A stretch of DNA of 64,000 bases from an uncultured Eubacteriales bacterium. Its GTDB lineage: Bacteria; Acidobacteriota; Aminicenantia; Aminicenantales; CALLJL01. Location: NCBI GenBank assembly GCA_964627255.1, contig CAZVIN010000083.1, positions 86,114 through 150,113 of the forward strand, read 5' to 3'. The notes under the pieces are model-generated. The model did not search any database. It was not told the origin of the DNA and worked only from the letters and a program-made list of their open reading frames with translations. Shown here piece by piece: positions 1 through 17,311 of this stretch (its first letter is position 1; every line of letters starts with the position of its first letter). Both the position numbers and the translations under genes were made by a program.

Positions 1-286
1 CATAGGTTTGGTTGCCGAACCGCTCATAAAGGTTGAAAATAACCACCACGCCGAATTCCTTAGCTTTAGCCGCTATCAAGTCCGACGTTGGCCCCGGAAT
101 AGTTTCTGCTAAGGAAATAGATGCCGGGTCATTTGGCCTTTGAGGGAAAAAGGGCAGGAAACTCAATTCAGGAAAAACAATAAGCTCCGCTCCCTTTTGG
201 GCCGCTTCTTGCAGGGCGGCCAAACCGCGCCTAATATTAGCCTGCTTTGAGGGCATAGCTTTCTGCTGGATTAAGGCGAGTTTCAT
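1..286 (-). CDS. Carbon-nitrogen hydrolase (nitrilase superfamily) N-terminal part; the gene continues beyond the window start
   Basis: The reverse strand from an ATG at 286-284 reads MKLALIQQKAMPSKQANIRRGLAALQEAAQKGAELIVFPELSF..., which contains the CN-hydrolase catalytic-Glu context 'LIVFPE'. The reading frame runs off the window edge. Confidence 0.55.
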   Translation of the reverse strand, partial: MKLALIQQKAMPSKQANIRRGLAALQEAAQKGAELIVFPELSFLPFFPQRPNDPASISLAETIPGPTSDLIAAKAKEFGVVVIFNLYERFGNQTY

Positions 287-444
287 CTTAAGCCTCTTTT
301 CCTAAAACCTGTTCTTAATATTAGCCGGTTTATGACGCCTAAGCAAGCTGATAAGCCAAAGAAACAGTTTTAGATAGAAGAGAACGACATTTTTAATTCT
401 TGATTGCTCTAATAAGGTCAGCTTGGATAAAATGTTAGCTTACG

Positions 445-2496
445 ATGCCCAAGCTTAGCTTTTTCCGAAGAGAAGCTCTTTTTAAAATGTTTCTTGACTT
501 ACCGCTCAGAACTAAATTCATTTTAAGTTTTCTCGTGGTTATTGGCTTCGGTGGTTTATTTTCGCTTTTCTTCGGGACGCGCTTAGAACATCGGACTATC
601 TTTTCCTTGGCCCAGGCTAAGGTTCGTCATGACCTGGATTCTGCCAGGACCGTTTATCAAGAAAAAATTAACGATATCCGCGACATCGTGCAGCTTAATT
701 CTATTCGTGACTCTATCCAACGAGCTCTTCTCAGCCAGGACCGCCAACTTCTTCTACGGCAGCTTGGCCGTATCAGGCAGGAATTCAAACTGGACATACT
801 AAACGTCGTTGATGCTCAAGGAATAGTCATGTTAAGAACGAGGAATCCTGAAATTTACGGCGACGAGTTGGCCTCCGACCCTATTATTTCTATAGCGCTC
901 AAAGGAGAGATAACGAATGGCACAGGGGTAGTATCGCGGGAAGTTCTGTTGCGTGAAGGCGAAGAGCTGGCATCGCAAGCCTATATTAAATTTATTCCGA
1001 CCCCGCGGGCTACTCCCAAGGCAGAAGACCACGAAGAAAATGGCCTGATGCTTTTAGCGGCTGCGCCGATATGGGATGGCCAGGGAAAGGTAGCCGGCGT
1101 TTTATATGGCGGCCTTCTTCTCAATCGTAATTACGGCATTGTCGACCGGGTTAAAGATATTGTCTTTAAAGGGGAGAGATATAAGGGAAAGGAAATCGGT
1201 ACGGTGACCATTTTCCAGCACGACCTCCGTATTTCAACCAATGTTACCGACGAATTCGGTGAGAGAGCTATTGGCACGAGGGCTTCTCAGGAAGTAGCCG
1301 AAACAGTCCTCGACCGGGGCGAGCCATGGATTGGCCGGGCTTTTGTCGTTAACCATTGGTACATTGCCGCTTACGAACCGATCCGAGACGTAACGGGAGC
1401 AATTATTGGAATGCTCTACGTCGGCATGTTGGAAAAGCCATATATCGACCTGAGGAACCGCGTTATGTTGACCTTTACTGGCCTTGCCGGACTCTGTGCC
1501 GTAATTCTGCTTGTTATCCTTTCGAGTATTACCTCAACTATTATTAACCCTTTGCAACGGATGGTTCAGGCAACTCAGAAGATTGCTCATGGCGAGCTTA
1601 ATCACAAGGTGGCGATTGACTGGCGAGATGAAATTGGCCAATTAGCTGAATCTTTCAACCGCATGACTGAAGACCTGAAAGCCGCCAATGAGAATTTAGT
1701 CCAGTGGAGTAAAACCTTAGAGAGAAAAGTCGAGGAAAGGACGCGAGAATTAAAGGAGATGCAGGATTATCTTATCCAGTCCGAAAAGCTGGCTTCCTTA
1801 GGCAAAATGGCCGCCGGCATTGCTCATGAAATCAACAATCCTTTGACCTCAATTTTAATTAACGCTCATCTTCTTTTGGAAAAACTGGCCAAGACCGAAA
1901 AAAAAGACGAATTTTACGAAAATCTTAGCCTCATTGCCGAAGAAACAGCGCGTTGTAGCCAAATAGTCCGTGGTTTACTCGAGTTTGCCCGGCAGAGTCC
2001 ACCCCAAAAGGATTTTATCGATATCAACGATTGGCTCGAAAAAACGGTGACGCTTCTGGAAAATAAAGCCTCGTTTCAAAACATCAAAATTGTTAAAAAT
2101 TTTGACCCGAACTTGCCGCTAATTCGGCTTGACCGTTCCAAAATTCAGCAGGTTTTTTGGAATCTGATGGTTAACGCCTGTGAAGCCATGCCCAGGGGAG
2201 GTCAATTAACTATTGTGACACAGTTGGCCGAAAATAAAAAGGCGATTGAAGTTAGCTTTATTGATAATGGAGTCGGTATTCCCGCCGAGAATCTCAATAA
2301 GATTTTCGACCCCTTTTTTACTACTAAAGCCAGCGGCACTGGCCTTGGCTTAGCTATCTGTTATGGCATTATTCAGCAGCATCAAGGTCTGATTGAGGTT
2401 AAAAGTGAAGTGGGGCGAGGAACGGTCTTTACTTTAATTTTACCCTTAGAAACCAAAAGTAATAATCAGATAACAGGAGGAACTTCTGATGACTGA
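445..2496 (+). CDS. Sensor histidine kinase (N-terminal TM, periplasmic Cache-like sensor, second TM, HAMP, HisKA, HATPase_c)
   Basis: H-box '[18 protein letters not shown]', N-box '[12 protein letters not shown]' and G-boxes 'DNGVGIP' / '[12 protein letters not shown]' are present. Two hydrophobic segments flank an extracellular domain of about 280 aa. The stop overlaps the start of the next gene by 8 nt. Confidence 0.85.
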
Positions 2497-3265
2497 AAAA
2501 GAGAAAAGGAAAATTCTGGTGGTTGACGATGAAATTACTGTCTGCAAAAGTATTCGCCAAGCAATACTAAGTGAGGGCCAGGAAGTGGACATGGCATTGA
2601 GCGGAGAGGAAGCCCTAACCAAAGACCGAGAGAAGCGGTATGACTTAGTTATCACCGATTTAATGATGCCAGGAATAAGCGGTCTTGACCTGTTACGGGA
2701 AATTAAAGTAGCGCATCCGGAAGTCAAAGTAGTGATGATTACTGGATATCCCACGATTAAGACAGCGGTTGAGTCAATCAAATTAGGTGCCTTTGATTAC
2801 ATCCCTAAACCATTTACGCCCGCTGAATTGAGAGCCTTAGTGGTACGAGCCCTCAAACAGGCAGAAACCGAGACTAGTACAGAAGCCACAGCGGTCGAAG
2901 CCAAAATTCCTGCTGGCTATTATTACCTCATCGGTCATACCTGGCTCAAATTAGAGACAAGTAATTATGGCCTGGTGGGAGTAACGCATGATTTTTTAAG
3001 AAGCGTCGGGATAATCATGCACCTCGAGCTTCCCAAAATTGGCGATACTCTTTCGCAAGGCGAAGTATGTGCCAAGATTACTGATGCCGACCGCTTCCAC
3101 CACCGCATCTGGTCTCCCGCTTCAGGCCGAGTAATTGAGGTAAATACTGCTTTGCTTCATGATTTCTCTTTATTGCGGCGCTCGCCCTACAACGAAGGCT
3201 ATCTATTTAAGATTGACCTCGTTGCCTTGGAGGAAGACCTAAAGGGTCTTTTGCAAGCTAAGTAG
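2489..3265 (+). CDS. Response regulator: N-terminal receiver domain fused to a C-terminal glycine-cleavage H-protein (GcvH)-like domain
   Basis: REC motifs 'ILVVDDE', 'DLVITDLMMPGISG' and 'VMITGY' are present. The C-terminal half 'GHTWLKLE...VGVTHDF...LELPKIGDTLSQGEVCAKITDADR...SPASGRVIEVNTAL...SPYNEGYLFKI' matches the GcvH fold signature (HxW, SG.V.EVN, PY..GW-like tail). Confidence 0.75.
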   Translation: MTEKEKRKILVVDDEITVCKSIRQAILSEGQEVDMALSGEEALTKDREKRYDLVITDLMMPGISGLDLLREIKVAHPEVKVVMITGYPTIKTAVESIKLGAFDYIPKPFTPAELRALVVRALKQAETETSTEATAVEAKIPAGYYYLIGHTWLKLETSNYGLVGVTHDFLRSVGIIMHLELPKIGDTLSQGEVCAKITDADRFHHRIWSPASGRVIEVNTALLHDFSLLRRSPYNEGYLFKIDLVALEEDLKGLLQAK

Positions 3266-3279
3266 CGCCTTTAATTAAA

Positions 3280-6200
3280 ATGTCACTGGCTGGGAGCCGA
3301 CCATTTTTTGATAGCGAAGAGACTTTTTCGCGAATTGTGAATTCGCTTTTAGAGGAGCTGCCCGAGCACGCCATTTTTTTCTTAAACCCGAAGGGAAATT
3401 GGCAAAAAAGCCCTCGCAGCTGGGAAGAGAGAATAAACCATGAATTCCTTTACCGCCTGAAAACAGAAGCGCCGATTGTCCGGAAAAATTTTATTCAAAT
3501 AACATATGGTTGTCTTAAGAACCCTGATTTTTTATCTCTGGTCCAAAAAATTAGCTCGCTTTGGCTGGAATCTTCATTTCCCTTAGAGAATTGGCTGACC
3601 CTGCCCCCCGAATTGCAAGAAGAGCTAAGGCCTTCCATTCTAAGTGCGGTTTGGAATCAGAAACGGTTTAGCGAGGACGCGAGGATTTTTATAAATTTTA
3701 TCCGACTCGTAACTAATATAATTTTATCCCGTTGTTTAGAACTAAATAGTACTCTTCCTGTTCCTGATTGGGACGTTCAGGTTCGGGAGGTCAAGTCATA
3801 TTTCTGGCACAGAAGACGGGCCTGGGAGGAAGGAGAAGCGGGTCGTTTTTCTTTGAAAGAAAAAGAGCTTTTTTTTGAGCTACGCCAGATTATCGCGGGT
3901 TCGCTGGCTGGCCTAATTGCTCCGATTGCGCAATTAGTGGCTGAAGAGCAAAGAATTTCCTTAATTTTAGTTAATCTTTTTCGAAAGCTTAAAACATCGT
4001 CGGACAAAGAAGAGATTTATCAGACAATTATCGAGAAATGGCGGCCAGCTATGGGAATAGTCGCCAACCTCTCTTCCTCTCTTTTCTTTCTTTCTCTTTG
4101 TCTTTTAATTCTTCCCGATATTGAGTTATCCAGCGGCCTCCAATACGCGGCCTCGGTAAACCTTAGCCTGTTTCGTGATAAACGTTCTACTGACTATTTG
4201 CTTTATGCCTTAGAAAAATTGCCGATAATCAACACTAAAATAAGGGAAAACATTATTTACACCCTTGGCTGTTTAAAGGAAGCGAGAGCTGTGCCGCTTG
4301 TAGCGCAAATTTTAGAACAACCCGATTTTTGGCCTGAGTCTGATTTAAAAGAAGCCAGAATTTGCCCGCTGCAAGAGCAAAAAGAAGAAGCTATCTGGGC
4401 CTTAGGAAAGATTGGCTTGGCCGCGGTCAAAGCAATCCCCATCCTTTCTTTTTATGCTGAACACCCCTCGGCTAAACTAAAAACTTATTTGGCCTGGGCT
4501 TTGGGTGAGATTGGTCGGGCTCAAAAGGAAAATTCTGGCGGAATAAGCGCTGACCTGCTGATAGCCCTCCTAAGACTGCTCAAGGAAAAAAATAAAGAGG
4601 TTTTCGAAGAGGCCACGAGTGCCTTGAAAAAAATTCAAATGCCCGAGTTTATCCACAATCTTTATCTTTATCATGTGGGGGCAGTCAACCTTTTGAGTTT
4701 AAAGCCAGCCACTACTGGACTTAATGAGCTTTCTGCAACCCTAAATCATTTATTGACCAAGAAGAAAAGGACAGTGATGGTGGTAACAGGAGATTCAGGG
4801 ACGGGGAAAACCTATTTTTGTCAGGTTCTGGCTAAAGGTCTGGCTGGCGTCAAGCCGGCGGAAATTCTTTATCTCATGCGAGATTCTAAAAACGGCCGAA
4901 AAATCTTTAACCGTCTTTTAGGCCTAAACTGGCTCAAGCGCTATATTGACCCGGCCTATTATCAGCCTGAATTGACTGACGAGACTACCGCTGACTCTGA
5001 GACCTTTTGGTCGAGCTTTTTAGAGACTCATAAAGATAAAAAATTCATTTTACTCGATGGTTGCCGGGACCGTCATTATTTCCAGCGAGTTGTTGACCTG
5101 TTTTATGAAAGAGGCGAACTCGACGTGGTTGTCAACTTTAGGGCCAATTTCTCCACCCGCCGTCTTAACCTCGAAGCCAGAGAGGTGGCTTTAGAAAGCG
5201 TCCGGCTTCACCTTTCTTTTCTCGAAGAACCGGCTCTGGAGGACACGTATTTCTATCAAGAGGGAAAAACGATCCTTTATGACCTGGATAATTCGGAAAA
5301 TTCGCGGCTCAATCAGGACGAAATAACCGAGCTCTTTTCTCCGAGAGTGATTCCTCGCTGGGAGGAGTTTATTCAGCTCGGCACTTTTAAATATGAACAA
5401 AACATCCCCCTTACCTCTGAAGAAAAAATAGATTCTCAAGAGGCTTCATTGCAAGCTGAGGTTTCTGAGTGGCCAGAATCTCAAGTGTCCTCGCTTCGGC
5501 CAGAAGAACAAATACTAACAATTCAGTTGAATGAAGCTCTCGCCGCCGAACCCAATTTGCTTTACATTCTACCTTTGACCAAGTTAAAGCCGGAGCGGCT
5601 TCAATTTTATGCTCAAGAACAAGTTGGCGGTGTCGATGAAGACGGTGCAATTTTTGTTCTAACTCTTCTTGACCATCGTCTCTTCCGCGTGCCACTGCAC
5701 CCGAAGCCCGCGACTTTTGCTATCCTCAATCAAGCTTTCTACTTAGTGGATGAATTGGGTGGCCTAGTGAGTGTTTCTTTGGAAAAAGAAGAAAAAATTA
5801 ATTATCGCCTCTCAGGGTCAGCTATTTCTGGTCTTGCCGCCATCCCGCCCGACTGTATTTTAGCGGCGGAAAAAAATGGCCTAATTCGGCTTTGGAACTT
5901 CGAAGAAAAGAAACAGGAGCGTTTAAACCTGGAGGTTGGGCCTATTAACTCCCTGGCCTCGGCCCCAGGAAGAAATGTCTATTTATCCACGGCGACGGAT
6001 ATTATTTGTTTAAATTGGGAAAAAGGGGTCATTAATCGGATGCGCTTAGCAGGTGAGACGCCTAAATCTATTTATACTGTATCGAAGGACAAAATTATAG
6101 CCGTGGTGAGCAGAAAAAATGACACTGAATGGGGCCTGAGGTTTATTAATTTTGATCGAGGGGTGGGCACGACTCTTTGGCTTCCTGGGACCAAAAGGAT

Positions 6201-6486
6201 AAAGACCTTAGCCCCTCTTTTAGACGGCCGGGTGGTTATTATTTGCCAACAGGATAGTAAATCATTCAATGAAGGCCCCACTCTTTTTGTTCTAAATCCA
6301 GAAGGAGATTATTTTTCATTAGCCAGAGTAAATAGACGGCCCATTGAGATAAATGACCTGCTTATTTTAGGCCCAAGAATTCTAACGTGTGGTCTCGAAT
6401 CCAACGGTCAAGGTTCTTTTCGCCTCTGGGGAAGCGAATTTTTTGTCCGAGCGGAAAGAAGTAAACTAAAAATTAAGCCCTTTTAA
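3280..6486 (+). CDS. Large multidomain protein: N-terminal helical region, HEAT/PBS-lyase-like repeats, PRK/uridine-kinase-like P-loop domain, C-terminal WD40-like beta-propeller
   Basis: HEAT-like repeats occur around 'EARAVPLVAQILEQPDF...EAIWALGKIGLAAVKAIPIL...LKTYLAWALGEIGRA' (about nt 4240-4640). Walker A 'VVTGDSGTGKTYF' (nt ~4786-4815) resembles the phosphoribulokinase/uridine-kinase motif GDSG(C/S)GK(S/T)TF. The C-terminal ~330 aa contain WD-like strands ('NGLIRLWNFEEKK', 'GSFRLWGSEFF'). The gene sits 15 nt downstream of the response regulator gene. Confidence 0.7.
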   Translation: MSLAGSRPFFDSEETFSRIVNSLLEELPEHAIFFLNPKGNWQKSPRSWEERINHEFLYRLKTEAPIVRKNFIQITYGCLKNPDFLSLVQKISSLWLESSFPLENWLTLPPELQEELRPSILSAVWNQKRFSEDARIFINFIRLVTNIILSRCLELNSTLPVPDWDVQVREVKSYFWHRRRAWEEGEAGRFSLKEKELFFELRQIIAGSLAGLIAPIAQLVAEEQRISLILVNLFRKLKTSSDKEEIYQTIIEKWRPAMGIVANLSSSLFFLSLCLLILPDIELSSGLQYAASVNLSLFRDKRSTDYLLYALEKLPIINTKIRENIIYTLGCLKEARAVPLVAQILEQPDFWPESDLKEARICPLQEQKEEAIWALGKIGLAAVKAIPILSFYAEHPSAKLKTYLAWALGEIGRAQKENSGGISADLLIALLRLLKEKNKEVFEEATSALKKIQMPEFIHNLYLYHVGAVNLLSLKPATTGLNELSATLNHLLTKKKRTVMVVTGDSGTGKTYFCQVLAKGLAGVKPAEILYLMRDSKNGRKIFNRLLGLNWLKRYIDPAYYQPELTDETTADSETFWSSFLETHKDKKFILLDGCRDRHYFQRVVDLFYERGELDVVVNFRANFSTRRLNLEAREVALESVRLHLSFLEEPALEDTYFYQEGKTILYDLDNSENSRLNQDEITELFSPRVIPRWEEFIQLGTFKYEQNIPLTSEEKIDSQEASLQAEVSEWPESQVSSLRPEEQILTIQLNEALAAEPNLLYILPLTKLKPERLQFYAQEQVGGVDEDGAIFVLTLLDHRLFRVPLHPKPATFAILNQAFYLVDELGGLVSVSLEKEEKINYRLSGSAISGLAAIPPDCILAAEKNGLIRLWNFEEKKQERLNLEVGPINSLASAPGRNVYLSTATDIICLNWEKGVINRMRLAGETPKSIYTVSKDKIIAVVSRKNDTEWGLRFINFDRGVGTTLWLPGTKRIKTLAPLLDGRVVIICQQDSKSFNEGPTLFVLNPEGDYFSLARVNRRPIEINDLLILGPRILTCGLESNGQGSFRLWGSEFFVRAERSKLKIKPF

Positions 6487-6557
6487 TTTTCATATTTTTG
6501 TAAAATAAGCTGCAAAGCTAATCACTTTGAATTTTCGAGCCCACAAGAAGGAATATT

Positions 6558-7946
6558 TTACAGAGAGCGAAATGACTCTATCTCTTCTATTGATTTTGGG
6601 ATTCTTTTGCCCAACACCCGATGCCCCTGAGGTGTGACCAAAACATCATCTTCAATCCGAATACCGCCAAAATTAATATAATCCATTACTTTCTCATAAT
6701 TAATGAAAGCGGTGTGTTTCTTTTCTTTCTTCCATTTAGCAATGAGGGCGGGAATAAAATAAATGCCAGGTTCAACTGTTAGCACAAAGCCTGGCTCTAA
6801 CTTCCTTGCCAGGCGGAGGTAAGCTAAGCCGAACTGGTCGCTGCGCTGGAAGGATTCATCATAACCCACATATTTTTCTCCCAAACCCTCCATATCATGG
6901 ACATCTAAACCGAGCATATGGCCCAAGCCATGAGGAAAGAAAAGGGCGTGGGCGCCAGCGGCAATCGCTTCTTCCACCTCGCCTTTCATCAAGCCTACAT
7001 CTTTTAGGCCCGAAGCTATAACCCGGCAGGCCTGAAGATGAACGTCTTTATAAGGAATTCCGGGTTTAATGGCCAAGATAGCTGTTTCTTGAGCTTGCAG
7101 GACTATTTCGTAAATATCTCGCTGTTTCCGGGTAAATTTCCAGCCAACGGGTAAAGTCCTGGTAATATCTGAGGCATAATGCTCCTTGGATTCAACGCCG
7201 GCATCCATAACCAGCAGTTTCCCCCTCTCTAAACGATGGCTATGCTCATGATTATGCAGAATCTGGCCATTAATGGTTAAAATTATAGGAAAAGCCTGGT
7301 GACATCCCTGGCTTAAGCCCACAGCTTCCATGGCGGCCACCAATTCCCATTCCAGCCTTCCAGGCTGAGCCATTTTCATGCCCGCAAGATACATCTCACG
7401 GGTTAAACTGAGAGCCGCCTCGATTTCCTTTACCTCTAACTCATCTTTAACGGCTCTTAAAGCCACTGTAGCTTTGATCAATTCTTCGGAGGCTCCCGTT
7501 TTGATTTCTTTGGGCGATTTTTTTAAAAGTTGGGCTAAATCAACCACCGTCTCTGAGCGATAAGGCGGGAGATAATGCACCCGACGACCAGCAGCAAGAG
7601 CTTTTTCTATGAATGGCTCTATTTCCTTAAGAGGTAGAACTTCTTTGATGCCAGCTTTTCTTGCCTTTTCAGTTAATTTGGGCTGATGGCCCATCCAGAT
7701 AATGTCTTCTAAGGAAAGTTCATTGCCAAAAATAATTTCTTTGCCTTCATCGAAATCAATCAGACCGACCAAGTCCGGACTATCTATGCCGAAAAAATAG
7801 AGGAAGGAACTATCTTGTCGGAAATGATACGTATTAGCCGGATAATTCATCGGGGCCTCTTTATTACCCCAGAAAAGAGCCAAACCCGAACCTAATTTCT
7901 TTTTTAAGGCTTCACGGCGTTGCCGATAAACTTTGCTTTCAAACAT
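6558..7946 (-). CDS. pepP: Xaa-Pro aminopeptidase / prolidase (peptidase M24B)
   Basis: M24 metal-ligand context 'HGLGHMLGLDVHD', 'VLTVEPGIYF' and 'IRIEDDVLVT' is present, with an N-terminal creatinase_N-like region. Confidence 0.85.
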   Translation of the reverse strand: MFESKVYRQRREALKKKLGSGLALFWGNKEAPMNYPANTYHFRQDSSFLYFFGIDSPDLVGLIDFDEGKEIIFGNELSLEDIIWMGHQPKLTEKARKAGIKEVLPLKEIEPFIEKALAAGRRVHYLPPYRSETVVDLAQLLKKSPKEIKTGASEELIKATVALRAVKDELEVKEIEAALSLTREMYLAGMKMAQPGRLEWELVAAMEAVGLSQGCHQAFPIILTINGQILHNHEHSHRLERGKLLVMDAGVESKEHYASDITRTLPVGWKFTRKQRDIYEIVLQAQETAILAIKPGIPYKDVHLQACRVIASGLKDVGLMKGEVEEAIAAGAHALFFPHGLGHMLGLDVHDMEGLGEKYVGYDESFQRSDQFGLAYLRLARKLEPGFVLTVEPGIYFIPALIAKWKKEKKHTAFINYEKVMDYINFGGIRIEDDVLVTPQGHRVLGKRIPKSIEEIESFRSL

Positions 7947-8128
7947 ATTAATACCTCCCTTAACCGAGATGAAAGGAGTTTTATATCAAATTATCCGAAA
8001 CATCGCAAGTTGAATTAAATATTGTGGACAAAATATCACATTTTATGCTGATAGGACCAGAGAAATACGAATAAGTTTTTTTAAATTTTATCTTTTCCTT
8101 ATTGAAGGGACTAAGATTGAATTATCAT

Positions 8129-10492
8129 TTAAAAAGCTTCGTGTTCAGTGCGGCGGATAATTTCGTCCTGTAGTTCCTTGCTCAAGTCAACAAAATAATC
8201 GCTAAAACCAGCGACCCGAACAATTAGGTCTCGGTATTTTTCGGGGTAGCGCTGCGCTTCCCGCAGAGTTTCGGCTGTGACCACGTTGAGCTGAATGTGG
8301 TGGCCGTCAAGCCGGAAATAGGTTCTGATAAGATGTGCCAGGTTTTTGAGCCCGTCTTCTGTAGCTAAAAGTTGCGGCGTAAATTTTTGATTAAGCAAAG
8401 TTCCGCCTGTCCGAAGATGGTCGATCTTGGCCACGGACTTTATTACGGCTGTCGGGCCTTTGCGGTCAGCTCCCTGAACCGGGGAGACTCCCTCGGAAAG
8501 GGGTTGGTGCGCTAAGCGGCCGTCGGGAGTTGCGCCGGTCATCTTGCCAAAATAGACATGAACTGTTGTCGGTAAAAGGTTAATGCGATAAGTCCCGCCC
8601 TTCAAATTCGGCCGACCGTTAACTGCCCGGTAATAAATTTCAAATACTTGTCGGAGTAGGCTGTCGGCATAATCATTATCATTTCCATACTTAGGTGTTT
8701 TATTCAGCAGGACTTGGCGCCAGGCCTCAGAACCTTCGAAGTTACGGGACAAAAGCTCCAGAAATTCAGCCATCGAGGTCGACCGTTTATCAAAAACATG
8801 GAAGCGAAGGGCGCTTAAGGAATCAGTAATTGTGCCCATCCCAACCCCCTGGATGTAAGAGGTATTATAGCGGGCACCTCCGTCATGATAATCTTTGGCT
8901 TTGTCAATACAGTCGTCGATCAGCAAGGAAAGGAACGGGGCGGGCAGATATTCCGCATAAATCCTTTCGATAATGTTGTTGCCACGAATTTTAATATCAA
9001 TAAAATGTCTCACCTGCCGCTCGAAAGCCAACAGCAGCTCGTCGAAAGTTTTAAAATTTCTGGGGTCTCCAGTTTCCAAGCCGATTTTTTTGCCGGTCCT
9101 GGGGTCAATGCCGTTGTTCAGTGTGATTTCAAGGACCTTGGGCAGGTTAAAATATCCTGTCAAGATGTAAGCTTCCTTCCCAAAAATTCCAGCCTCCACA
9201 CAACCGCTCGCCCCACCCGACCGAGCATCTTCCAAAGATTTTCCTTGACGCAGCATTTCCTGAATGATGGCGTCGGTGTTAAAAATAGACGGCTGGCCGA
9301 AACCAGTTTTAAGGATTTTTAGAGCGCGCAACAGGAATTCGTCCGGGGTCTTTTTACTGATTTGCACCATCGAGCTGGGCTGGATGAGACGCATTTCTTC
9401 AATCACATCCAATATTAAGAAAGAAAGTTCATTGACTCCATCCGCGCCGTCATTTTTAACCCCGCCCAGATTAATCAGGCAAAAATCAGTATAGGTGGCG
9501 CTTTCTTCCGCGGTGACACCCACCTTAGGAGGAGCGGGCTGATTATTAAATTTAATCCAGAAGGCCTGGAGCAGCTCTCTCGCCTTTTCTTCCGTCAAAG
9601 TGCCTTCTTCTAACCCCTTTTTATAAAAAGGATAAAGATGCTGGTCTAAGCGGCCAGGATTAAAGGAATCCCAAGTGTTGAGTTCGGTTATAACCCCAAG
9701 ATGAACAAACCAGTAATATTGCAGAGCTTCCCAAAAATCACGGGGCGGGTTTTCGGGTACCCAAGAACAAATTTCAGCCAGGCGTTCCAACTCGGCCTTC
9801 CGCTGAGGGTCTTTTTCTTCGGCAGCTAATGCTCGGGCTTTTTGGGCATAGCGGTGGGCATACATGATGAGAGCGTCCGCCACAATTTCCATGGCCTTCA
9901 ACTCTTCCCTTTTTTTTAAGACTTCCGGGTCATTGAATTCATCCAGCCGGCGTCTTGAAGCCGCGATATCCCTTTTTAGGTCCTTAAAGCCCTTCCGGTA
10001 TATTTTATCGTCTAAGACTGTATGGCCTGGAGCCCGCTGCTCCATGAACTCGGTGAAGATGCCAGCTTCATAGGCATCTTTCCATTCCGCGGTCATCTCC
10101 GCAAAGATTTTTTCTCTGATTGTTTTCCCTTGCCAAAAAGGAATGATTTTTTCTCTATAGATTCTTTTTGTTTCCTCCTCTACCAGAAAGGGGGTTTTGC
10201 GACGGCTGTTAAGAATCTCTAAATCCTGTAAAGAATGGCAGGTGACCTCAGGATAAGTCGGAGTGGCCTTAGGAGCCGGCCCTCTTTCGCCGACAATAAG
10301 CTCGCCTTCGTCGAGCCAAAGAGCTTTTTTTTCTAAGAGATGACGAAAAGCCAGAGCTCTTTTTACCGCCGGAGAAAGGGTCGGGTCATTATTCTCTTGA
10401 TAAAATTCAGTCAAAAGCAAGGCTCTTTCGGGAGTGATATAAGGTTTAGTGTTAAGACTCTTTTCCCTGAGACGGGCAATTCTTTGATTCAT
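8129..10492 (-). CDS. Glycyl radical enzyme, PFL2/eliminase-like family (787 aa); substrate unknown
   Basis: C-terminal glycine-radical motif 'RVAGFSDYFVDL'. Thiyl-radical loop 'SGGASGCVEAGIFG' (Cys-x-Glu as in glycerol/choline/hydroxyproline-type eliminases, not the CC of pyruvate formate-lyase). Size and layout match the PFL2 family. Confidence 0.85.
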   Translation of the reverse strand: MNQRIARLREKSLNTKPYITPERALLLTEFYQENNDPTLSPAVKRALAFRHLLEKKALWLDEGELIVGERGPAPKATPTYPEVTCHSLQDLEILNSRRKTPFLVEEETKRIYREKIIPFWQGKTIREKIFAEMTAEWKDAYEAGIFTEFMEQRAPGHTVLDDKIYRKGFKDLKRDIAASRRRLDEFNDPEVLKKREELKAMEIVADALIMYAHRYAQKARALAAEEKDPQRKAELERLAEICSWVPENPPRDFWEALQYYWFVHLGVITELNTWDSFNPGRLDQHLYPFYKKGLEEGTLTEEKARELLQAFWIKFNNQPAPPKVGVTAEESATYTDFCLINLGGVKNDGADGVNELSFLILDVIEEMRLIQPSSMVQISKKTPDEFLLRALKILKTGFGQPSIFNTDAIIQEMLRQGKSLEDARSGGASGCVEAGIFGKEAYILTGYFNLPKVLEITLNNGIDPRTGKKIGLETGDPRNFKTFDELLLAFERQVRHFIDIKIRGNNIIERIYAEYLPAPFLSLLIDDCIDKAKDYHDGGARYNTSYIQGVGMGTITDSLSALRFHVFDKRSTSMAEFLELLSRNFEGSEAWRQVLLNKTPKYGNDNDYADSLLRQVFEIYYRAVNGRPNLKGGTYRINLLPTTVHVYFGKMTGATPDGRLAHQPLSEGVSPVQGADRKGPTAVIKSVAKIDHLRTGGTLLNQKFTPQLLATEDGLKNLAHLIRTYFRLDGHHIQLNVVTAETLREAQRYPEKYRDLIVRVAGFSDYFVDLSKELQDEIIRRTEHEAF

Positions 10493-10494
10493 CC

Positions 10495-11403
10495 TTAACC
10501 TCCTATGGAGATAGGCAATTTAGTTTTATTAAAAAAATGGGCGATTTTTTCCATGGATTCAAGCGAAGGCTTTTTAAGCTCAGCTAATTGATAACTGCGG
10601 CCCAAGCGGGTGTATTTTTCCTTACCAAAAGAATGGTAAGGCAAAAGCTCTATGCCCTTAATCGGGGGGAGAGAGGAAATAAAAGAGGCCATCTGAACTA
10701 AATTGGCTTCATCATCATTGATTGAGGGAACGACGGGAATGCGAATAACGACTTTATCTGTGAGCCGAGCTAAGCTTATCAGGTTTTCTAATATTAGTTC
10801 ATTTCTTAAACCTGTAGCTAAGCGGTGTCTTTCCGGGTCCATTAATTTCAGGTCATAAAGAAAGAGGTCGACCAACGTCCAAATTCGCTTGAAAACTTTA
10901 AAGGGGGCATAGCCTGAGGTATCAACTGTGGTTGAGAGCCGATTTTTCTTGCTGAGTTCGAGAAGTTCCTCTAAGAACTCAGCTTGAAGAAGCGGTTCAC
11001 CTCCAGAGAAGGTCACGCCGCCCCCAGATTCCTCATAAAACGGAGAATCCTTCATGACCTCGGCCATTACTTCAGCAGCCGTCATTTTCTTGCCTACTAT
11101 TTCCAGGGCTTCTGAGGGGCAAATCTCGGCACAGAGGCCACAACAATCGCAGCGTTGCGCCTCGATTAGGGGCGAGACGCCGGGTTTAGAGATTGCCCCT
11201 TGAGGGCATTTTTCTAAACAGAGCTGACAGCCATCAAGGCAGCGGTTGAGTCGAAGCATAAGCTCTGGTCCGATTTTTTGGCCCTCTGGATTATGGCACC
11301 AGAGGCAGCGAAGGGGGCAACCTTTGAAAAAAATAGTTGTTCGAATTCCAGGTCCGTCGTGGAGGGCGTACTTTTTGATGTCGAACACAATCCCCTGAGT
11401 CAA
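10495..11403 (-). CDS. Glycyl-radical enzyme activating enzyme (radical SAM, with extra ferredoxin-like Cys clusters)
   Basis: 'CPLRCLWCHNPE' CxxxCxxC radical-SAM motif, plus 'CxxCxxxC' ferredoxin-type clusters ('CDCCGLCAEICP'). 302 aa. Lies 2 nt upstream of the glycyl radical enzyme on the same strand. Confidence 0.85.
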   Translation of the reverse strand: MTQGIVFDIKKYALHDGPGIRTTIFFKGCPLRCLWCHNPEGQKIGPELMLRLNRCLDGCQLCLEKCPQGAISKPGVSPLIEAQRCDCCGLCAEICPSEALEIVGKKMTAAEVMAEVMKDSPFYEESGGGVTFSGGEPLLQAEFLEELLELSKKNRLSTTVDTSGYAPFKVFKRIWTLVDLFLYDLKLMDPERHRLATGLRNELILENLISLARLTDKVVIRIPVVPSINDDEANLVQMASFISSLPPIKGIELLPYHSFGKEKYTRLGRSYQLAELKKPSLESMEKIAHFFNKTKLPISIGG

Positions 11404-12092
11404 AGTTCACCCCCAGTCGCGGTTTTTTCTACCGGGTAATATTTTAAGATATAACTTTTTTGAACTTCGAAGGACCAGTGGACGTCCCGAATAAATCGGG
11501 CGGCCGCCTCATAATCCTTTCGTTGCAGAAAACCGAGCAGATGTTCATGCTCCCTTATTGAGGCTTCCTCCCATTCCCGGATATAGGCTGGCTGACGGGG
11601 AAAATCGTAAAGTCTTTTTTTGAGGGTGTTGACGATGCGATTTAATTCGGGATTATGACAACGGGATAAATAAACATTATGAAATTCAAGATTACGCTCA
11701 TAATAGGTATCAAAGTCGTCTCGGCTGAGAGCTTTTTTCATTCCTTCAACAAGCTTTAACATGGTTTCTAAATCTTTTTCGCTGATGCTAGGACCAGCTC
11801 TCAGAATAGCCAAGCTTTCCAAGGCACCGATGACCTCATAGGCATTTTTAATCTCCTCAAGAGTGAGCGGGTTGACTATTACCCCCCGCCGTGGTTTGAT
11901 CGTCACAAAGTTTTCCATAGCTAATTGCAGAAGAGCATCTCTTAAGGGAGTCTTGCTGATTCCCAGCGATTGGGCTGTTTCCTCCATCTTGATTTCTTCA
12001 CCTGGTTTTAGCCTACCGCGGCGTAACTGGAGCCGGAGATAATCGTAGACCTGTTCTTTGAGAGATTTAAAAGTTAGCCGAGGATTACGCAT
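11400..12092 (-). CDS. GntR-family transcriptional regulator (FadR/FCD-type C-terminal domain)
   Basis: N-terminal winged HTH 'EETAQSLGISKTPLRDALLQLAMENFVTIKPRRGVIV'. Helical C-terminal FCD-like domain. ATGA overlap with the activase gene. Confidence 0.8.
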   Translation of the reverse strand: MRNPRLTFKSLKEQVYDYLRLQLRRGRLKPGEEIKMEETAQSLGISKTPLRDALLQLAMENFVTIKPRRGVIVNPLTLEEIKNAYEVIGALESLAILRAGPSISEKDLETMLKLVEGMKKALSRDDFDTYYERNLEFHNVYLSRCHNPELNRIVNTLKKRLYDFPRQPAYIREWEEASIREHEHLLGFLQRKDYEAAARFIRDVHWSFEVQKSYILKYYPVEKTATGGEL

Positions 12093-12318: not shown

Positions 12319-12675
12319 CTAAGGGCGGAGTTGGGTGAAAAATTGGCTGATTTCAGCCGTCACAAAAGGCTTATTGATAATTCCTAAGTGCGGAACCTGA
12401 CGGGCTCTATTTAAAATTAGCTCATCATTATAGGCTGTAATATAAACAAGCTGGTAAGGACCGTTGGCTTGAATTATCTTAGCGGCCTCGATGCCATCCA
12501 GTCTTCCTTTTAGTTTAATATCCATAAAAATCAGGTTTGGCCTTTTTGTCTTAAGCCAGCTTAAACCCTCTTCGGCCGAAGAGGCCACCTGAACTTCCTT
12601 AGCGCCAAGAGAACGGACGAGAAAAGCCAAATCCATGGCCACTATGGCTTCATCCTCGATGATTAAGACTCGCAT
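12319..12675 (-). CDS. Single-domain response regulator (CheY-like receiver)
   Basis: 'MRVLIIEDEAIVAMDL...IFMDIKLKGRLDGIEAAKII...LVYITAY'. The likely start is the internal Met; the six-frame ORF extends to 12720. Confidence 0.75.
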   Translation of the reverse strand: MRVLIIEDEAIVAMDLAFLVRSLGAKEVQVASSAEEGLSWLKTKRPNLIFMDIKLKGRLDGIEAAKIIQANGPYQLVYITAYNDELILNRARQVPHLGIINKPFVTAEISQFFTQLRP

Positions 12676-12783
12676 CGGGAAAAACTCGCCATTTCGGGCA
12701 ATAAAAATAGATGAAACCATATAAAATTCACCAATAATTAAGTCGCATAAGGAAGGAGAATTTCGGAAACTTAGTTAAAAAAA

Positions 12784-12975: not shown

Positions 12976-13485
12976 TTGATGGCCGAAAAAATGGCTGCGT
13001 TCTTATTTTTCCTTTTCGCCATCGTTAGTTTGGCCGCAATTATGGGGATGATCTTTTCTCGGCACCAAGCCCACAACGCTCTTTTCTTGGCCGTAGCATT
13101 CACCGCCTTAGGCGGCCTCTTTGCCTTGCTTAATGCTCCCTTTATTGCGGCGGTTCAAATTATTATTTATGCCGGCGCCATCATGGTCCTTTTTATATTT
13201 GTGATCATGATGATCGACCTTCGTCAGCCTTTACCGGCTGCCAAGAAAAGATGGATATATTGGCTTGGCGCGGGGCTCATGATTGTTGTCCTCACAGAAC
13301 TACTTTTTGTTCTGCGTTCTCTTCCTTCGGTCAACAGCAGCGCCGAGCCTGATTTTGGTAGCCCGAGGGCCTTGGGACAAATTCTTTTCACTAAATATCT
13401 TTATGCTTTTGAAATTACTTCCATCCTCATCGTGGCCGCCCTTGTCGGCTCTCTTTATTTAGCACGCAGGAAGGAGAAGGACTAA
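12976..13485 (+). CDS. nuoJ: NADH-quinone oxidoreductase subunit J
   Basis: Hydrophobic 169-aa protein with the NuoJ/ND6-like pattern. First gene of a tightly packed J-K-L-M-N series. Confidence 0.75.
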   Translation: MMAEKMAAFLFFLFAIVSLAAIMGMIFSRHQAHNALFLAVAFTALGGLFALLNAPFIAAVQIIIYAGAIMVLFIFVIMMIDLRQPLPAAKKRWIYWLGAGLMIVVLTELLFVLRSLPSVNSSAEPDFGSPRALGQILFTKYLYAFEITSILIVAALVGSLYLARRKEKD

Positions 13486-13784
13486 TGCCGCCAGCCTCAT
13501 TTTTTATTCTGAGCTGTGTGCTTTTCTCGATGGGCGGGGTGGCCTTTTTAATCAAACGCGACTTGATTACCCAATTTATGGCCATCGAAATAATGCTCAA
13601 TGGAGCCAATTTAGCCCTCGTGGCGGCCGCCAAACTCTGGGGGTCTCTGGCCGGTCAAGTGCTTGTTTTCTTCGTAATTACGGTGGCCGCGGCCGAAGCG
13701 GCGGTCGGCTTGGCCATCATCCTTTTGATTTATCGCCAGAAAAAAAATATCAGGTCTGAGGAGATTAATCAGCTGAAGGGTTAG
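13485..13784 (+). CDS. nuoK: NADH-quinone oxidoreductase subunit K
   Basis: 99 aa, three TM helices, 'FFVITVAAAEAAVGLAIIL' (NuoK/ND4L signature with conserved Glu). Confidence 0.8.
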   Translation: MPPASFFILSCVLFSMGGVAFLIKRDLITQFMAIEIMLNGANLALVAAAKLWGSLAGQVLVFFVITVAAAEAAVGLAIILLIYRQKKNIRSEEINQLKG

Positions 13785-13785
13785 G

Positions 13786-15693
13786 ATGAGTGAGTATTTT
13801 TGGTTAATCCCCTTTTTTCCAGCGGTTAGTTCTCTTATTCTGGTTATTTTTGGCCGCTGGCTGCCCAAAAAATATGTTTCTATCCAGGCTCCACTGGCTG
13901 TCTTTCTTTCTTTTCTTTTTGGGCTAAAAGCTTTTCTCTCTCTAAACCAATCTCACCTCGAGACGGAAGGGCCGGCCTTGGTTAAGACTCTTTTCTCCTG
14001 GATTCACTCTGGCCAGTTTCAGATAGATTTTACGTTCTGGTTTGACCCGTTAACGGCAGTCATGGTGCTGGTGGTAAGCGGTGTTGGTTTTATTATTCAT
14101 GTGTATTCCGTTGGTTATATGGCCGAAGACAGAAGTTACACCCGTTATTTTAGCCTACTCAATCTTTTTACCTTCGCCATGCTCCTCCTGGTTATGTCTC
14201 AGAATGTCGTCCTGATGTTCGTCGGTTGGGAAGGAGTCGGCCTTTGTTCCTATCTTTTAATCGGCTTTTGGTTTGAAAAACCGGCGGCGGCCAGCGCCGG
14301 CAAAAAAGCCTTTATCGTTAACCGGATTGGCGACGCTGCCTTTATACTGGGTATCTTTTTCCTTATTATTAACTTGAAAACAGCTTCTTTTCCGGAGATT
14401 AACCATGCCCTTTTGAGCGGTCAAGTTTCTCCGGCTTTGGCCACACTCATCGGCCTGTTGTTGTTTATCGGGGCCACGGGAAAATCAGCTCAGATTCCCC
14501 TCTATGTTTGGTTGCCTGATGCTATGGAAGGTCCGACCCCTGTAAGTGCTCTGATCCATGCGGCGACCATGGTAACGGCGGGCGTTTATATGGTTTCACG
14601 GTTCAACCTGCTTTACAGTTACTCCTCCGCTGCTTCTGACGTGATAGCGATAATCGGGGCCTTAACCGCTGTTTATGCCGGAACAATTGCTCTAACTCAG
14701 AATGATATCAAGCGCGTCCTCGCCTATTCGACGATTTCTCAGATTGGCTATATGTTTCTTGGTTGTGGAGTCGGCGCCTATGCTGCGGGTATGTTTCATC
14801 TTTATACCCATGCCTTTTTTAAGAGTCTTCTTTTCTTGGCTGCGGGCAGCGTGATGCATGCCCTTTCTGGTGAGTTGGACATGAGGAAAATGGGCGGACT
14901 AAAAAAATATCTTCCGCTCACCTACCCCACTTTTCTAATCGGCGCGATCACTATTGCTGGCGTTCCCTTCTTTTCGGGCTTCTTCTCGAAGGACGCTATC
15001 CTAACGCAATGTTATGCTCAAGGCAAATACCTTCTTTGGGCTCTCGGCCTTGTCGGCGCGGTTATAACAGCCTTTTATATGTTTCGCCTTATTTTCCTCA
15101 CTTTTCACGGCCAGGAACGCTTCTCAGCTGAAGTTCGACATCATCTCCGCGAATCGCCTCCTGTAATGACTATTCCGTTAATTATTCTTGCCTTTTTCTC
15201 CGTGGTCGCTGGTTACGTTGGCCTGCCCGTAGTCTTTGGTCATAACCTAAACTGGTTTGAACAATTCTTAGAGCCGGTTATAAAAGGAAAAGCCGAAGCT
15301 CATCTAACTCTGAGTATGGAATGGCTTTTAATCATCGTTTCGGTAGCGGTCGCCCTAACCGGCATCGCCCTCGCCTACCTGCTTTATCAAAAATCACCCT
15401 TGCTTCCCCATCAACTGGTCCGTCGTTTTCCTCGTTTCTATCGCCTTCTTCTCAATAAATACTATGTTGATGAAATTTATGAGGCGGCCTTTGTTCAACC
15501 CTTGGTTCGTGGTTCTGAGGCGATTTATTATGGCTTTGACCTGCCAGTAATTGATGGGGCCGTTAATGGCTCGGCCCGGTTGACGGCCTTTTTCGGGAGG
15601 ATTTTGAGCCTGTTTCAAACTGGGCAAGTGAGGGATTACGCTCTTATTTTCCTTATAGGAGTGGCGCTAATATTAGGTTTGGTTATATTTTAA
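13786..15693 (+). CDS. nuoL: NADH-quinone oxidoreductase subunit L
   Basis: 635 aa antiporter-like subunit with the long C-terminal extension typical of NuoL/ND5. Confidence 0.8.
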   Translation: MSEYFWLIPFFPAVSSLILVIFGRWLPKKYVSIQAPLAVFLSFLFGLKAFLSLNQSHLETEGPALVKTLFSWIHSGQFQIDFTFWFDPLTAVMVLVVSGVGFIIHVYSVGYMAEDRSYTRYFSLLNLFTFAMLLLVMSQNVVLMFVGWEGVGLCSYLLIGFWFEKPAAASAGKKAFIVNRIGDAAFILGIFFLIINLKTASFPEINHALLSGQVSPALATLIGLLLFIGATGKSAQIPLYVWLPDAMEGPTPVSALIHAATMVTAGVYMVSRFNLLYSYSSAASDVIAIIGALTAVYAGTIALTQNDIKRVLAYSTISQIGYMFLGCGVGAYAAGMFHLYTHAFFKSLLFLAAGSVMHALSGELDMRKMGGLKKYLPLTYPTFLIGAITIAGVPFFSGFFSKDAILTQCYAQGKYLLWALGLVGAVITAFYMFRLIFLTFHGQERFSAEVRHHLRESPPVMTIPLIILAFFSVVAGYVGLPVVFGHNLNWFEQFLEPVIKGKAEAHLTLSMEWLLIIVSVAVALTGIALAYLLYQKSPLLPHQLVRRFPRFYRLLLNKYYVDEIYEAAFVQPLVRGSEAIYYGFDLPVIDGAVNGSARLTAFFGRILSLFQTGQVRDYALIFLIGVALILGLVIF

Positions 15694-15694
15694 A

Positions 15695-17311
15695 ATGAAT
15701 CTACCAATAATTTCGTTAATCACTTTTTTGCCTCTGGCCGGTGCGGTTATCCTCATTTTTATTCCAGGCGAAAGAAAAGAATGGTCCCGGCTTATCGCCC
15801 TTTTGGTTTCGGTTGTCACGTTCGGGCTGTCCCTTGTTCTTCTGGTTAATTTTGACGCCAGCCAAGCTGAACCTCAATTGGTCGAAAAGGCGGCTTGGCT
15901 TGGCTACGGCATTAATTATCATGTTGGGGTTGACGGATTGAGTTTGCTTCTGATTCTTCTCACTACCTTCCTCTTCCCCATCGCCATTCTTTCAGGCTGG
16001 CGCTACATTGACCAGCGAGTCAAGGAATATCATTTATTCTTGCTCTTTTTGGAGACCGGGATTATCGGAGTATTCGTCGCCTTGAATCTGTTCCTTTTTT
16101 ATGTTTTCTGGGAAGTGATGCTTATCCCGATGTATTTTCTAATCGGTCTTTGGGGAGGCCCGCGGCGAATCTACGCTACCATCAAATTCGTTCTTTTTAC
16201 CATGCTGGGAAGCTTACTCATGCTAGTAGCGATATTTGTTCTTTATAGCTTCTACTACCGGGCTACCGGTATTTATTCCTTCGAATTCGCCGACCTGACC
16301 AAAATGATCCTTCTGCCCAAGGTACAAACTTGGCTCTTCTTAGCTTTTGCCTTGGCCTTTGCGATTAAGGTTCCGATGTTTCCATTCCATACCTGGTTAC
16401 CCGACGCCCACGTGGAAGCACCCACCGCGGGCTCTGTTATCCTGGCGGCCGTCCTCCTCAAGATGGGTGTTTATGGTTTTTTAAGGTTGGCTATGCCTCT
16501 CTTTCCTCAGGCTTTGGCCAAGTTCACTCCCTGGTTGATGGTTTTAAGCCTGATAGGGATTATTTACGGCGGCCTAATGGCCCTGATTCAAAAAGATGTT
16601 AAATCCTTGGTAGCCTATTCAAGTGTTAGCCATATGGGCCTTATTATGTTAGCCCTTTTTTCTCTCAATCCGGAGGCTATCGAGGGTTCGATAATTCAGA
16701 TGGTTAATCATGGGTTGAGCACGGGTGCGCTGTTTTTGATTGTGGGCATTCTTTATGAAAGAGCGCATACGCGGCTGATCAAAGATTACGGAGGCGTCAG
16801 TCGGCAGATGCCGGTTTTATCAGCTTTCTTTTTAGTTTGTATGCTTTCCTCCTTAGGCCTACCAGGGCTAAACGGCTTTGTCGGCGAAATCCTCTGCCTT
16901 TTTGGCGTCTTCCAGGTTAATAAGGTAATGGCTTATTTTGCGGTCAGCACAGTTATTTTGGCGGCTGGCTATCTTTTGTGGATGTACCAGAGAGTCATGC
17001 ATGGGCCAATCGTTCATGATTATGTCCGCTCGTTTCGCGACTTGAACAAGCGCGAAATTATATATTTAGCGCCGGTGGTTCTGATGATGTTCTGGATTGG
17101 CCTCTATCCTAATTTTTTCCTGAGAAAAATGGACACCTCAGTTAATCTTTTCCTTAAGAAAATTCAGGAGCGACAAAAATATTTTGTGTTCCACGCACCG
17201 CCCCACCCGCTAGTGTCCGTTGTTTCTGAAAGTGCTGATTTAAGTGATGGCCTCATCCTCAATAATCAATCAGAGGAAAACGCTAATAACAAGGGAATAA
17301 AGAAGCCATGA
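15695..17311 (+). CDS. nuoM: NADH-quinone oxidoreductase subunit M
   Basis: 538 aa antiporter-like subunit (ND4 family), 'WLPDAHVEAPTAGSVILAAVLLKMG'. Confidence 0.8.
   Translation: MNLPIISLITFLPLAGAVILIFIPGERKEWSRLIALLVSVVTFGLSLVLLVNFDASQAEPQLVEKAAWLGYGINYHVGVDGLSLLLILLTTFLFPIAILSGWRYIDQRVKEYHLFLLFLETGIIGVFVALNLFLFYVFWEVMLIPMYFLIGLWGGPRRIYATIKFVLFTMLGSLLMLVAIFVLYSFYYRATGIYSFEFADLTKMILLPKVQTWLFLAFALAFAIKVPMFPFHTWLPDAHVEAPTAGSVILAAVLLKMGVYGFLRLAMPLFPQALAKFTPWLMVLSLIGIIYGGLMALIQKDVKSLVAYSSVSHMGLIMLALFSLNPEAIEGSIIQMVNHGLSTGALFLIVGILYERAHTRLIKDYGGVSRQMPVLSAFFLVCMLSSLGLPGLNGFVGEILCLFGVFQVNKVMAYFAVSTVILAAGYLLWMYQRVMHGPIVHDYVRSFRDLNKREIIYLAPVVLMMFWIGLYPNFFLRKMDTSVNLFLKKIQERQKYFVFHAPPHPLVSVVSESADLSDGLILNNQSEENANNKGIKKP

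Follow-up and report, generated by a model that had tools for sequence, protein, structure and literature searches.

A response-regulator family of Aminicenantes with a GcvH-fold output domain that appears to have lost its lipoyl-lysine and is genetically linked to a HEAT/P-loop/WD40 protein

Response regulators are usually classed by their output domains, and outputs without a known mechanism mark gaps in our knowledge of bacterial signalling. CheY, CheV, RssB and PhyR are response regulators whose outputs bind proteins and neither bind DNA nor act as enzymes; to our knowledge, the GcvH fold is not known as an output from characterised regulators of this adaptor type. Described GcvH-like proteins with roles outside glycine cleavage are cofactor carriers: LbpA of the sHdr sulfur oxidation system has a strictly conserved lipoylated lysine and two extra conserved cysteines, and its gene is accompanied by hdr-like genes and by genes for dedicated ligases (PMC6067878); GcvH-L of the SirTM/macrodomain operon is described as a carrier protein for lipoic acid (PMC12440151). 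Here, we analysed a stretch of 64,000 nucleotides (nt), hereafter the window, from an uncultured bacterium assigned by GTDB to the Aminicenantales (assembly GCA_964627255.1, contig CAZVIN010000083.1, positions 86,114 to 150,113 of the forward strand), with a focus on the gene at positions 2489-3265, which encodes a receiver (REC) domain joined to a GcvH-like domain. Aminicenantes are a widespread uncultured group of sediments and the subsurface. Across the relatives that we compared, this regulator gene remains between the genes of a histidine kinase and a large HEAT/P-loop/WD40 protein, and the site of lipoylation in its output domain appears to have been replaced by a rebuilt hairpin. The regulator and its parts lie at the following window positions.

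2489..3265, + strand: REC-GcvH response regulator, 258 amino acids (aa) (open reading frame (ORF) call, Pfam, AlphaFold model, Foldseek)
2513..2842, + strand: receiver (REC) domain, aa 9-118 (Pfam Response_reg, E 2.1e-30)
2843..2920, + strand: interdomain linker, aa 119-144, comprising the end of helix alpha5 and then a disordered, sequence-variable stretch (predicted local distance difference test score (pLDDT), alignment)
2921..3259, + strand: GcvH-fold (single hybrid motif) output domain, aa 145-257 (Pfam GCV_H, Foldseek)
3065..3112, + strand: hairpin matching the lipoyl-lysine hairpin of GcvH, aa 193-208 (HMMER, MAFFT, AlphaFold model, conservation)

The initial annotation of this DNA, made from the letters alone, had claimed that the receiver is followed by a GcvH-type segment in place of a helix-turn-helix, and the profile search that it proposed bore this out. 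Pfam GCV_H matched aa 145-257 with an E value of 6.1e-17 and 62.1 bits against a gathering score of 22.2, NCBIfam recovered both a receiver half and an H-protein half, and a phmmer search of the PDB with the C-terminal 133 aa returned H-proteins (E ~4e-15). All four of the GcvH motifs quoted in that annotation were located in the reading frame (GHTW at aa 149-152, LPKIGD at 181-186, SGRVIEVN at 212-219 and PYNEGY at 233-238), and neither a helix-turn-helix nor any further output domain was detected in the regulator. An AlphaFold model built on an alignment of 58 homologues had a mean pLDDT of 87.4 and a predicted template modelling score (pTM) of 0.79, with aa 127-137 of the linker (pLDDT <50) as its sole disordered part. 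In Foldseek, the C-terminal half of the model matched the E. coli apo-H-protein 3a7a_B with an E value of 1.4e-12, a root-mean-square deviation of 1.6 Å, 33% identity and a template modelling (TM) score of 0.85, this last value being the Foldseek score normalised to the target. The GcvH-fold match is far beyond chance. The scores against the NCBI gcvH equivalog models remained under their cut-offs (67.3 versus 115.85 bits for TIGR00527; 69.1 versus 117 bits for NF002270). More than 120 clusters of proteins 62-95% identical to the regulator have its length and architecture, and the lengths listed for the family are almost all 257-258 aa, even though the linker columns are variable. Reached with two domains and a disordered linker, the pTM of 0.79 is a hint that the domains dock in a defined way in the model.

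The phosphorylation site of the receiver is complete, consisting of D13, D14, the phospho-acceptor D57 (codon 2657-2659), T85, Y104 and K107, each conserved in 120-121 of 121 close homologues (99-100%). The closest solved folds to this half of the model in Foldseek are the receivers of NtrX, NtrC1 and Spo0F. The stretch from T85 to R120, which spans alpha4-beta5-alpha5, is almost invariant, though overall identity in the family drops to 62%, and this pattern fits a constrained interaction face. Judged by its sequence, the receiver is predicted to be functional, and the protein is a member of the response-regulator superfamily, with all of the defining features that a sequence can reveal.

The output domain departs from GcvH at the very site that would carry the cofactor. 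The initial annotation had pointed to a lysine near the position of the GcvH lipoyl-lysine and had left the domain as either a potential lipoyl carrier or a binding module. That lysine exists as K196 (in CAKITD, codon 3074-3076), but its position is not homologous to that of the lipoyl-lysine. The modelled hairpin consists of a strand at 193-199, a turn at 200-203 (A200-D201-R202-F203) and a strand at 204-208, and K196 lies within the first strand, 5-6 residues ahead of the turn; in lipoyl and biotinyl domains, the target lysine has to occupy the tip of the turn. HMMER aligned the E. coli lipoyl-lysine, Lys65, to Arg202 (codon 3092-3094) with a one-residue insertion after 'CA', and a MAFFT alignment of 141 domains placed it opposite Asp201, with Arg202 in an insertion column; both D201 and R202 fall within the modelled turn, and the hairpin is one residue longer than that of canonical GcvH. 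Position 202 is occupied by Q in 34, H in 23, K in 22, R in 16, G in 13 and N in 8 of the 121 close homologues, in the same set in which C194 and W208 are invariant (121 each) and K196 (111, 92%), H205 (118) and R206 (119) are nearly so. Because position 202 varies while its neighbours are fixed, the function of the family is likely to be independent of a lysine at the lipoyl position, and selection appears to act on another motif of the hairpin rather than on the lipoyl-lysine column. The same column holds a lysine in only 3 of 70 diverse REC-GcvH representatives, compared with 20 of 37 receiver-less hits of GcvH size. The strongly acidic character of the H-protein is also missing: the output domain has an isoelectric point (pI) of 6.6 and a net charge of -1, and the GcvH-like domains of the family range from pI 5.2 to 9.0 and from -5 to +3, compared with pI 4.05 and -21 for E. 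coli GcvH. A scan of the window for ORFs of 120 aa or longer found no lipoate ligase or lipoate synthase, gcvT or gcvP. Lipoylation at K196, as a candidate, was rejected on the alignments, the modelled hairpin and the conservation in the family, and the alignment that had been suggested as a check on the lipoyl-lysine found this residue not to be conserved. Sequence and model together indicate that the output domain is most probably no lipoyl carrier and that its lipoyl-lysine has been lost; of the two roles left by the initial annotation, the binding module is the one favoured by the evidence, and the carrier is unsupported.

The genes on both sides of the regulator provide the second line of evidence.

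445..2496, + strand: sensor histidine kinase, 683 aa (Pfam, NCBIfam, hydrophobicity)
3280..6486, + strand: 1068-aa candidate partner ('BIG'; Pfam, homologue alignment)
4729..5349, + strand: divergent P-loop nucleoside triphosphatase (NTPase) core of the 1068-aa protein, aa 484-690 (motifs, Pfam AAA_18, conservation)

In the kinase, two hydrophobic segments (aa 23-47 and 339-370) enclose an extracytoplasmic region of ~290 aa, and the recognised domains are sCache_3_3 (aa 226-338), HAMP (363-412), HisKA (452-517), with the H-box HEINNPL at aa 461, and HATPase_c (563-669). The kinase and regulator genes overlap by 8 nt, at the stop codon of the one and the ATG of the other, and the gene context thereby gives the response regulator a HisKA/HATPase_c kinase directly upstream, as expected of a cognate pair. 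The gene for the 1068-aa protein begins 14 nt after the stop codon of the regulator. It encodes HEAT/ARM repeats (~aa 286-460), the P-loop NTPase core and a C-terminal WD40-type beta-propeller (~aa 750-1068), and belongs to a small family (192 hits) of uniform architecture. The best conserved part is aa 360-690, comprising the end of the HEAT repeats and the P-loop, with column identities of 0.75-0.88; the Walker A motif GDSGTGKT (aa 504-511, nt 4789-4812), the Walker-B-like ILLDG (aa 590-594, nt 5047-5061) and STRRLNLE (aa 625-632) are all invariant in the alignment of its homologues (A4). The P-loop core is divergent. Its best Pfam match, AAA_18, has an E value of 4.5e-5 and lies below the gathering score, STAND and NACHT matched the Walker A region only (E 0.02-0.05), and a profile search of the PDB gave no significant match. 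An AlphaFold model of this domain alone had a pLDDT of 64.5 and retrieved only generic P-loop folds in Foldseek (Apaf-1, p97, SRP54 and adenylate kinases; E >=6e-3), with Apaf-1 as a nominal top match that is not significant (E 6e-3, TM 0.26).

Two further properties of the large protein were considered and rejected. A role in anti-phage defence found no meaningful PADLOC match to known defence systems, and the hydrophobic segment at aa 258-279, which resembles a membrane helix, was not called transmembrane because the equivalent stretch of the L001 homologue is not hydrophobic and contains Glu and Pro. The N-terminus (window 3280-4120, aa 1-280) has no detectable domain, and its column identity is as low as 0.11.

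The linkage of these three genes was assessed in both directions. A forward scan with the GcvH-like domain, limited to one genome per GTDB species, yielded 37 loci, mostly from Aminicenantes metagenome-assembled genomes (MAGs), with the remaining records bearing generic or other submitter labels; tblastn found the order kinase, regulator, large protein on one strand in 36 of them. For the reverse test, the P-loop domain of the large protein served as the anchor and returned 80 loci on metagenome contigs. A REC-GcvH gene lay directly upstream of the large protein in every one of the 64 loci with enough upstream sequence (63 by the automatic criterion and one, L078, accepted on inspection), and a kinase lay directly upstream of the regulator in all 49 loci where the sequence extended sufficiently further. 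The outer flanks, a Xaa-Pro aminopeptidase and a glycyl-radical enzyme, are common only to L001 and L011, the two closest relatives. Even at greater distance, regulator and large protein stay together: the REC-GcvH gene of locus L039, which has no kinase upstream and whose product (P0278) belongs to another 50%-identity cluster, overlaps by 4 nt the downstream gene for a 1011-aa protein homologous to the large one (E 2e-124; 33% identity across 798 aligned positions). Within the cassette, the linkage is strict in both directions. No fusion of the GcvH-like domain with the large protein or the kinase occurred among 149 representatives, and promoter and terminator scans of positions 1-8200 of the window were at or below shuffled expectation.

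The gene after the cassette encodes a proline-specific exopeptidase in both sub-clades, of a family that differs between them: a Xaa-Pro aminopeptidase (M24) in the window (6558-7946, - strand) and in the closest relatives, and a dipeptidyl-peptidase IV (S9) in 12-13 other relatives (L002:13980-16166, + strand). These neighbours may mean that the module is related to peptide use, or may be coincidence. Just upstream of the kinase, in divergent orientation, 22 of the 37 related loci have a gene for an Rrf2-family regulator with a C-x8-C-x5-C motif, followed in 14 related loci by a PstS-like binding protein and ATP-binding cassette permeases (region L002:4180-7434 and its equivalents); an Rrf2 gene also adjoins the REC-GcvH gene in an Aerophobetes locus (L041). 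In the window, this place is taken by a carbon-nitrogen hydrolase fragment (2-286, - strand).

Beyond Aminicenantes, we searched 1.84 billion cluster representatives with a profile of the GcvH-like domain and obtained 5367 hits at E <=1e-3, among which the Aminicenantes family amounts to essentially one representative. A receiver lay N-terminal to the GcvH-like domain in 72 of the best 150 representatives (50%-identity clusters), and the phylogenetic survey proposed at the outset for such fusions thus points to what is apparently a broad and uncharacterised class of regulators. Full-length members are mostly ~250-290 aa long, named carriers include Aerophobetes and Acidobacteriota MAGs, and source annotations read 'CheY-like / glycine cleavage system H lipoate-binding protein' or 'response regulator'. 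Our literature search found no description of receiver-GcvH fusions; the class may be listed in the 2006 census of response-regulator outputs. Among 70 diverse REC-GcvH proteins, the hallmarks are Q190 (66/70), G191 (69/70), H205 (53/70), C194 (45/70) and the one-residue insertion in the hairpin, with H205 as the most conserved residue of the hairpin. Most of the other REC-GcvH lineages examined are without a homologue of the large protein, and the kinase is the only recurrent neighbour across the class, adjoining the regulator in 6 of 8 other loci. In two unrelated loci (L040 and L045), the kinase and then the regulator are preceded by a protein-kinase-like gene; these genes, just ahead of the histidine kinase, gave weak Pkinase matches below threshold (L040:4452-5426, Pfam E 6e-7; L045:3437-4480, E 1e-5). 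Tandem pairs of REC-GcvH genes follow a single kinase gene in three lineages (L037:5810-7889, L042:2608-5549 and L044:6001-7937), and the second copy in L042 is fused to an HdrC-like 4Fe-4S domain and followed downstream by an HdrB-like CCG protein and then by a flavoprotein with a 2Fe-2S thioredoxin-like domain.

GcvH-like domains without the lysine are also part of other architectures. One protein (P0244) combines three of them with FAD-oxidase, Fer4 and CCG domains, and another (P0251) has a CCG protein as its neighbour. Among the receiver-less, lysine-less proteins (P0331, P0352, P0389, P0307, P0302, P0317, P0299 and P0358), sequences read by eye place the domain after an N-terminal hydrophobic segment in some (e.g., P0307, P0302 and P0317), and proteins of ~570-580 aa, including P0331, have an N-terminus that by eye resembles periplasmic binding proteins, then a hydrophobic segment and then the GcvH-like domain. 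Pfam scans of P0331, P0299 and P0307 recognised no domain other than GCV_H. Some of the receiver-less proteins have Cys-rich N-termini, and several share what looks by eye like a common C-terminal extension of ~60 aa.

Taken together, we propose, at roughly even odds, that the three genes form a signalling module in which phosphorylation controls a protein-binding, GcvH-like adaptor that targets the co-encoded NTPase. A protein-binding output, rather than one that acts on a cofactor or DNA, is likely because the lysine has been lost and because the gene always lies between the kinase and the large ATPase. In such a module, the membrane kinase with its Cache-type sensor would detect an extracytoplasmic cue and phosphorylate Asp57, and this phosphorylation would shift the contact between the alpha4-beta5-alpha5 face and the tethered GcvH-like domain, which would switch between a receiver-docked state and a free or re-oriented one. 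The rebuilt hairpin, with its extra residue, Cys194 and His205-Arg206, would be the likely contact surface, through which the freed domain may bind the conserved HEAT/P-loop core of the 1068-aa protein and control its activity as an NTPase or scaffold. The regulator would then work like the adaptor-type RssB or CheY, unlike a transcription factor or a cofactor carrier. The steps that we infer are the phosphotransfer, the binding to the large protein, the use of the hairpin as its interface and the eventual effect of the NTPase.

Several considerations weigh against this proposal. Because most of the other REC-GcvH lineages that we examined have no homologue of the large protein, it cannot be the target of the GcvH-like domain in general, and the target may be a general one encoded elsewhere, also in this lineage. 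Conserved membership in an operon denotes functional linkage, not contact, and the large protein could act upstream of the kinase. Furthermore, the structural view of the proposed partner is limited, as the P-loop model reached a pLDDT of only 64.5 and a best Foldseek E value of 6e-3.

Other explanations of the same observations can be weighed on this evidence. It is possible, although unlikely, that the GcvH-like domain serves in oligomerisation or kinase feedback, or that the regulator acts as a phosphate sink, with the 1068-aa protein placed elsewhere in the pathway, for example as a scaffold or sensor feeding the kinase. The tandem REC-GcvH pairs behind one kinase suggest that GcvH-like domains pair with each other, and the recurrence of the kinase alone as a neighbour in most of the other loci also fits this explanation; however, this explanation accounts neither for the adjacency and translational coupling of the regulator and the large gene in the kinase-less locus L039 nor for the near-invariant motif of the hairpin. 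We regard it as distinctly unlikely that the domain is an H-protein decoy, docking on the P, T or L proteins or on lipoyl-transfer or Hdr-like enzymes and tuning metabolism post-translationally. For an Aminicenantes genome, a glycine cleavage system is on record (PMC4897734), the domain keeps the H-protein fold along with many of its structural signature residues, related domains without the lysine are found elsewhere in fusion with, or next to, HdrC/HdrB-like Fe-S/CCG proteins (P0251, P0244), and the absence of a conserved adjacent partner in most REC-GcvH lineages would fit a housekeeping target. Against a decoy, the acidic surface of the H-protein is gone (-5 to +3 versus -21 in E. coli), the contact hairpin has been remodelled, the linkage to the HEAT/P-loop/WD40 gene is absolute both ways in this lineage, and the scanned ORFs of the window include no glycine-cleavage or Hdr genes nearby.

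A second input, through binding of a metal or small ligand by Cys194 and His205 or through phosphorylation of His205, by which the regulator would integrate another signal, seems improbable to us. EIIA-Glc, a related barrel-sandwich-hybrid protein, carries a phospho-histidine, and C194 is invariant and H205 97.5% conserved in the close family, with H205 retained in 53 of 70 proteins across the class; yet C194 is found in only 45 of these 70, E. coli GcvH has a Cys in the same column without such a role, and a pair of residues does not suffice to define a site. Finally, lipoylation on K196 or a nearby lysine, with phosphorylation controlling the swinging arm or its redox state, can be set aside as highly improbable: the well-preserved GcvH fold speaks for it, and the 92% conservation of K196, together with the Lys that 22 of the 121 close homologues have at the lipoyl position, makes a lysine-bearing ancestor likely, but that column is Arg here, is variable in the family and holds Lys in 3 of 70 members of the class, K196 sits mid-strand in a hairpin with an extra residue when a target lysine needs the tip, the scanned window ORFs include no lipoate ligase or synthase, gcvT or gcvP, and known GcvH-like lipoate-binding proteins that carry lipoate retain a strictly conserved lysine (PMC6067878).

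A broader extension of the adaptor proposal is tentative and, in its full breadth, rather doubtful: the lysine-less GcvH-like domain may be a widespread, unrecognised signalling output module whose hairpin, in the receiver-fused branch, was rebuilt into a new functional site around the conserved His (and Cys), where the domain would dock or, possibly, be modified or bind a ligand, and which in Aminicenantes gates a dedicated HEAT/P-loop/WD40 NTPase. A cofactor-carrier fold that apparently lost its cofactor site has become the output of a large and diverse class of regulators, and the lock of one lineage to a single large NTPase/scaffold gene offers a concrete, testable partner. If the mechanism were worked out, signalling outputs would gain a new type, the function of a conserved 1000-aa protein family of Aminicenantes would become approachable for the first time, and such genes would no longer be annotated as 'glycine cleavage H / lipoate-binding'.

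Elsewhere in the window, an apparent operon beside the cassette (8129-12092, - strand) encodes a glycyl-radical enzyme with PFL-like and Gly_radical domains, the radical-SAM activase of this enzyme and a regulator of the GntR/FCD type. A 133-aa protein that consists of a receiver alone (12319-12720, - strand) and a sigma-54-dependent activator (19364-20824, - strand; REC, Sigma54_activat and HTH_8) flank a complex I block of nuoJ/L/M/N-like genes (12976-18744). Two further reading frames, 24293-25177 (- strand, 294 aa) and 60135-61475 (- strand, 446 aa), had no Pfam match at E <=1e-6.

Compared with described systems, the regulator shares with GcvH (PF01597, TIGR00527) the fold, ~30-33% identity over the output domain and the motifs H-x-W, LP-x-G, SP-x-SG-x-V-x-x-N and P-Y-x-x-G-W/Y. 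It differs from GcvH in being without the lipoyl-lysine at the hairpin tip (the E-S/A-V-K-A motif), in having an extra hairpin residue and a C...HR motif, in being near neutral rather than strongly acidic, in its fusion to a receiver and its score below the equivalog cut-off, and in that the ORFs scanned across the 64-kb window include neither gcvT nor gcvP. On these features, the regulator has the GcvH fold but is, in all probability, not a GcvH. LbpA and GcvH-L resemble it in that the GcvH fold has been recruited outside glycine cleavage, and some lysine-less relatives of the regulator domain are likewise fused to Hdr-like Fe-S/CCG modules. Unlike LbpA, the regulator has no lysine, one conserved Cys (C194) and no hdr-like genes adjoining the cassette, and its neighbours, in contrast to those of LbpA and GcvH-L, are a kinase and a HEAT/P-loop/WD40 protein; it is predicted not to be an LbpA-type protein. 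The 1068-aa protein resembles STAND and scaffold NTPases of the Apaf-1 kind in having a P-loop NTPase flanked by HEAT and WD40 repeats, whereas its match to Apaf-1 is not significant and its best Pfam match is the kinase-like AAA_18. A parallel in principle is with CheY, CheV, RssB and PhyR. The GcvH/single hybrid motif of the output and the proposed HEAT/P-loop/WD40 target have no counterpart there, whereas the complete receiver, the output that neither binds DNA nor is catalytic and the adjacent cognate kinase are common to both, as would be the proposed principle, inferred for our regulator, that phosphorylation alters which partner is bound.

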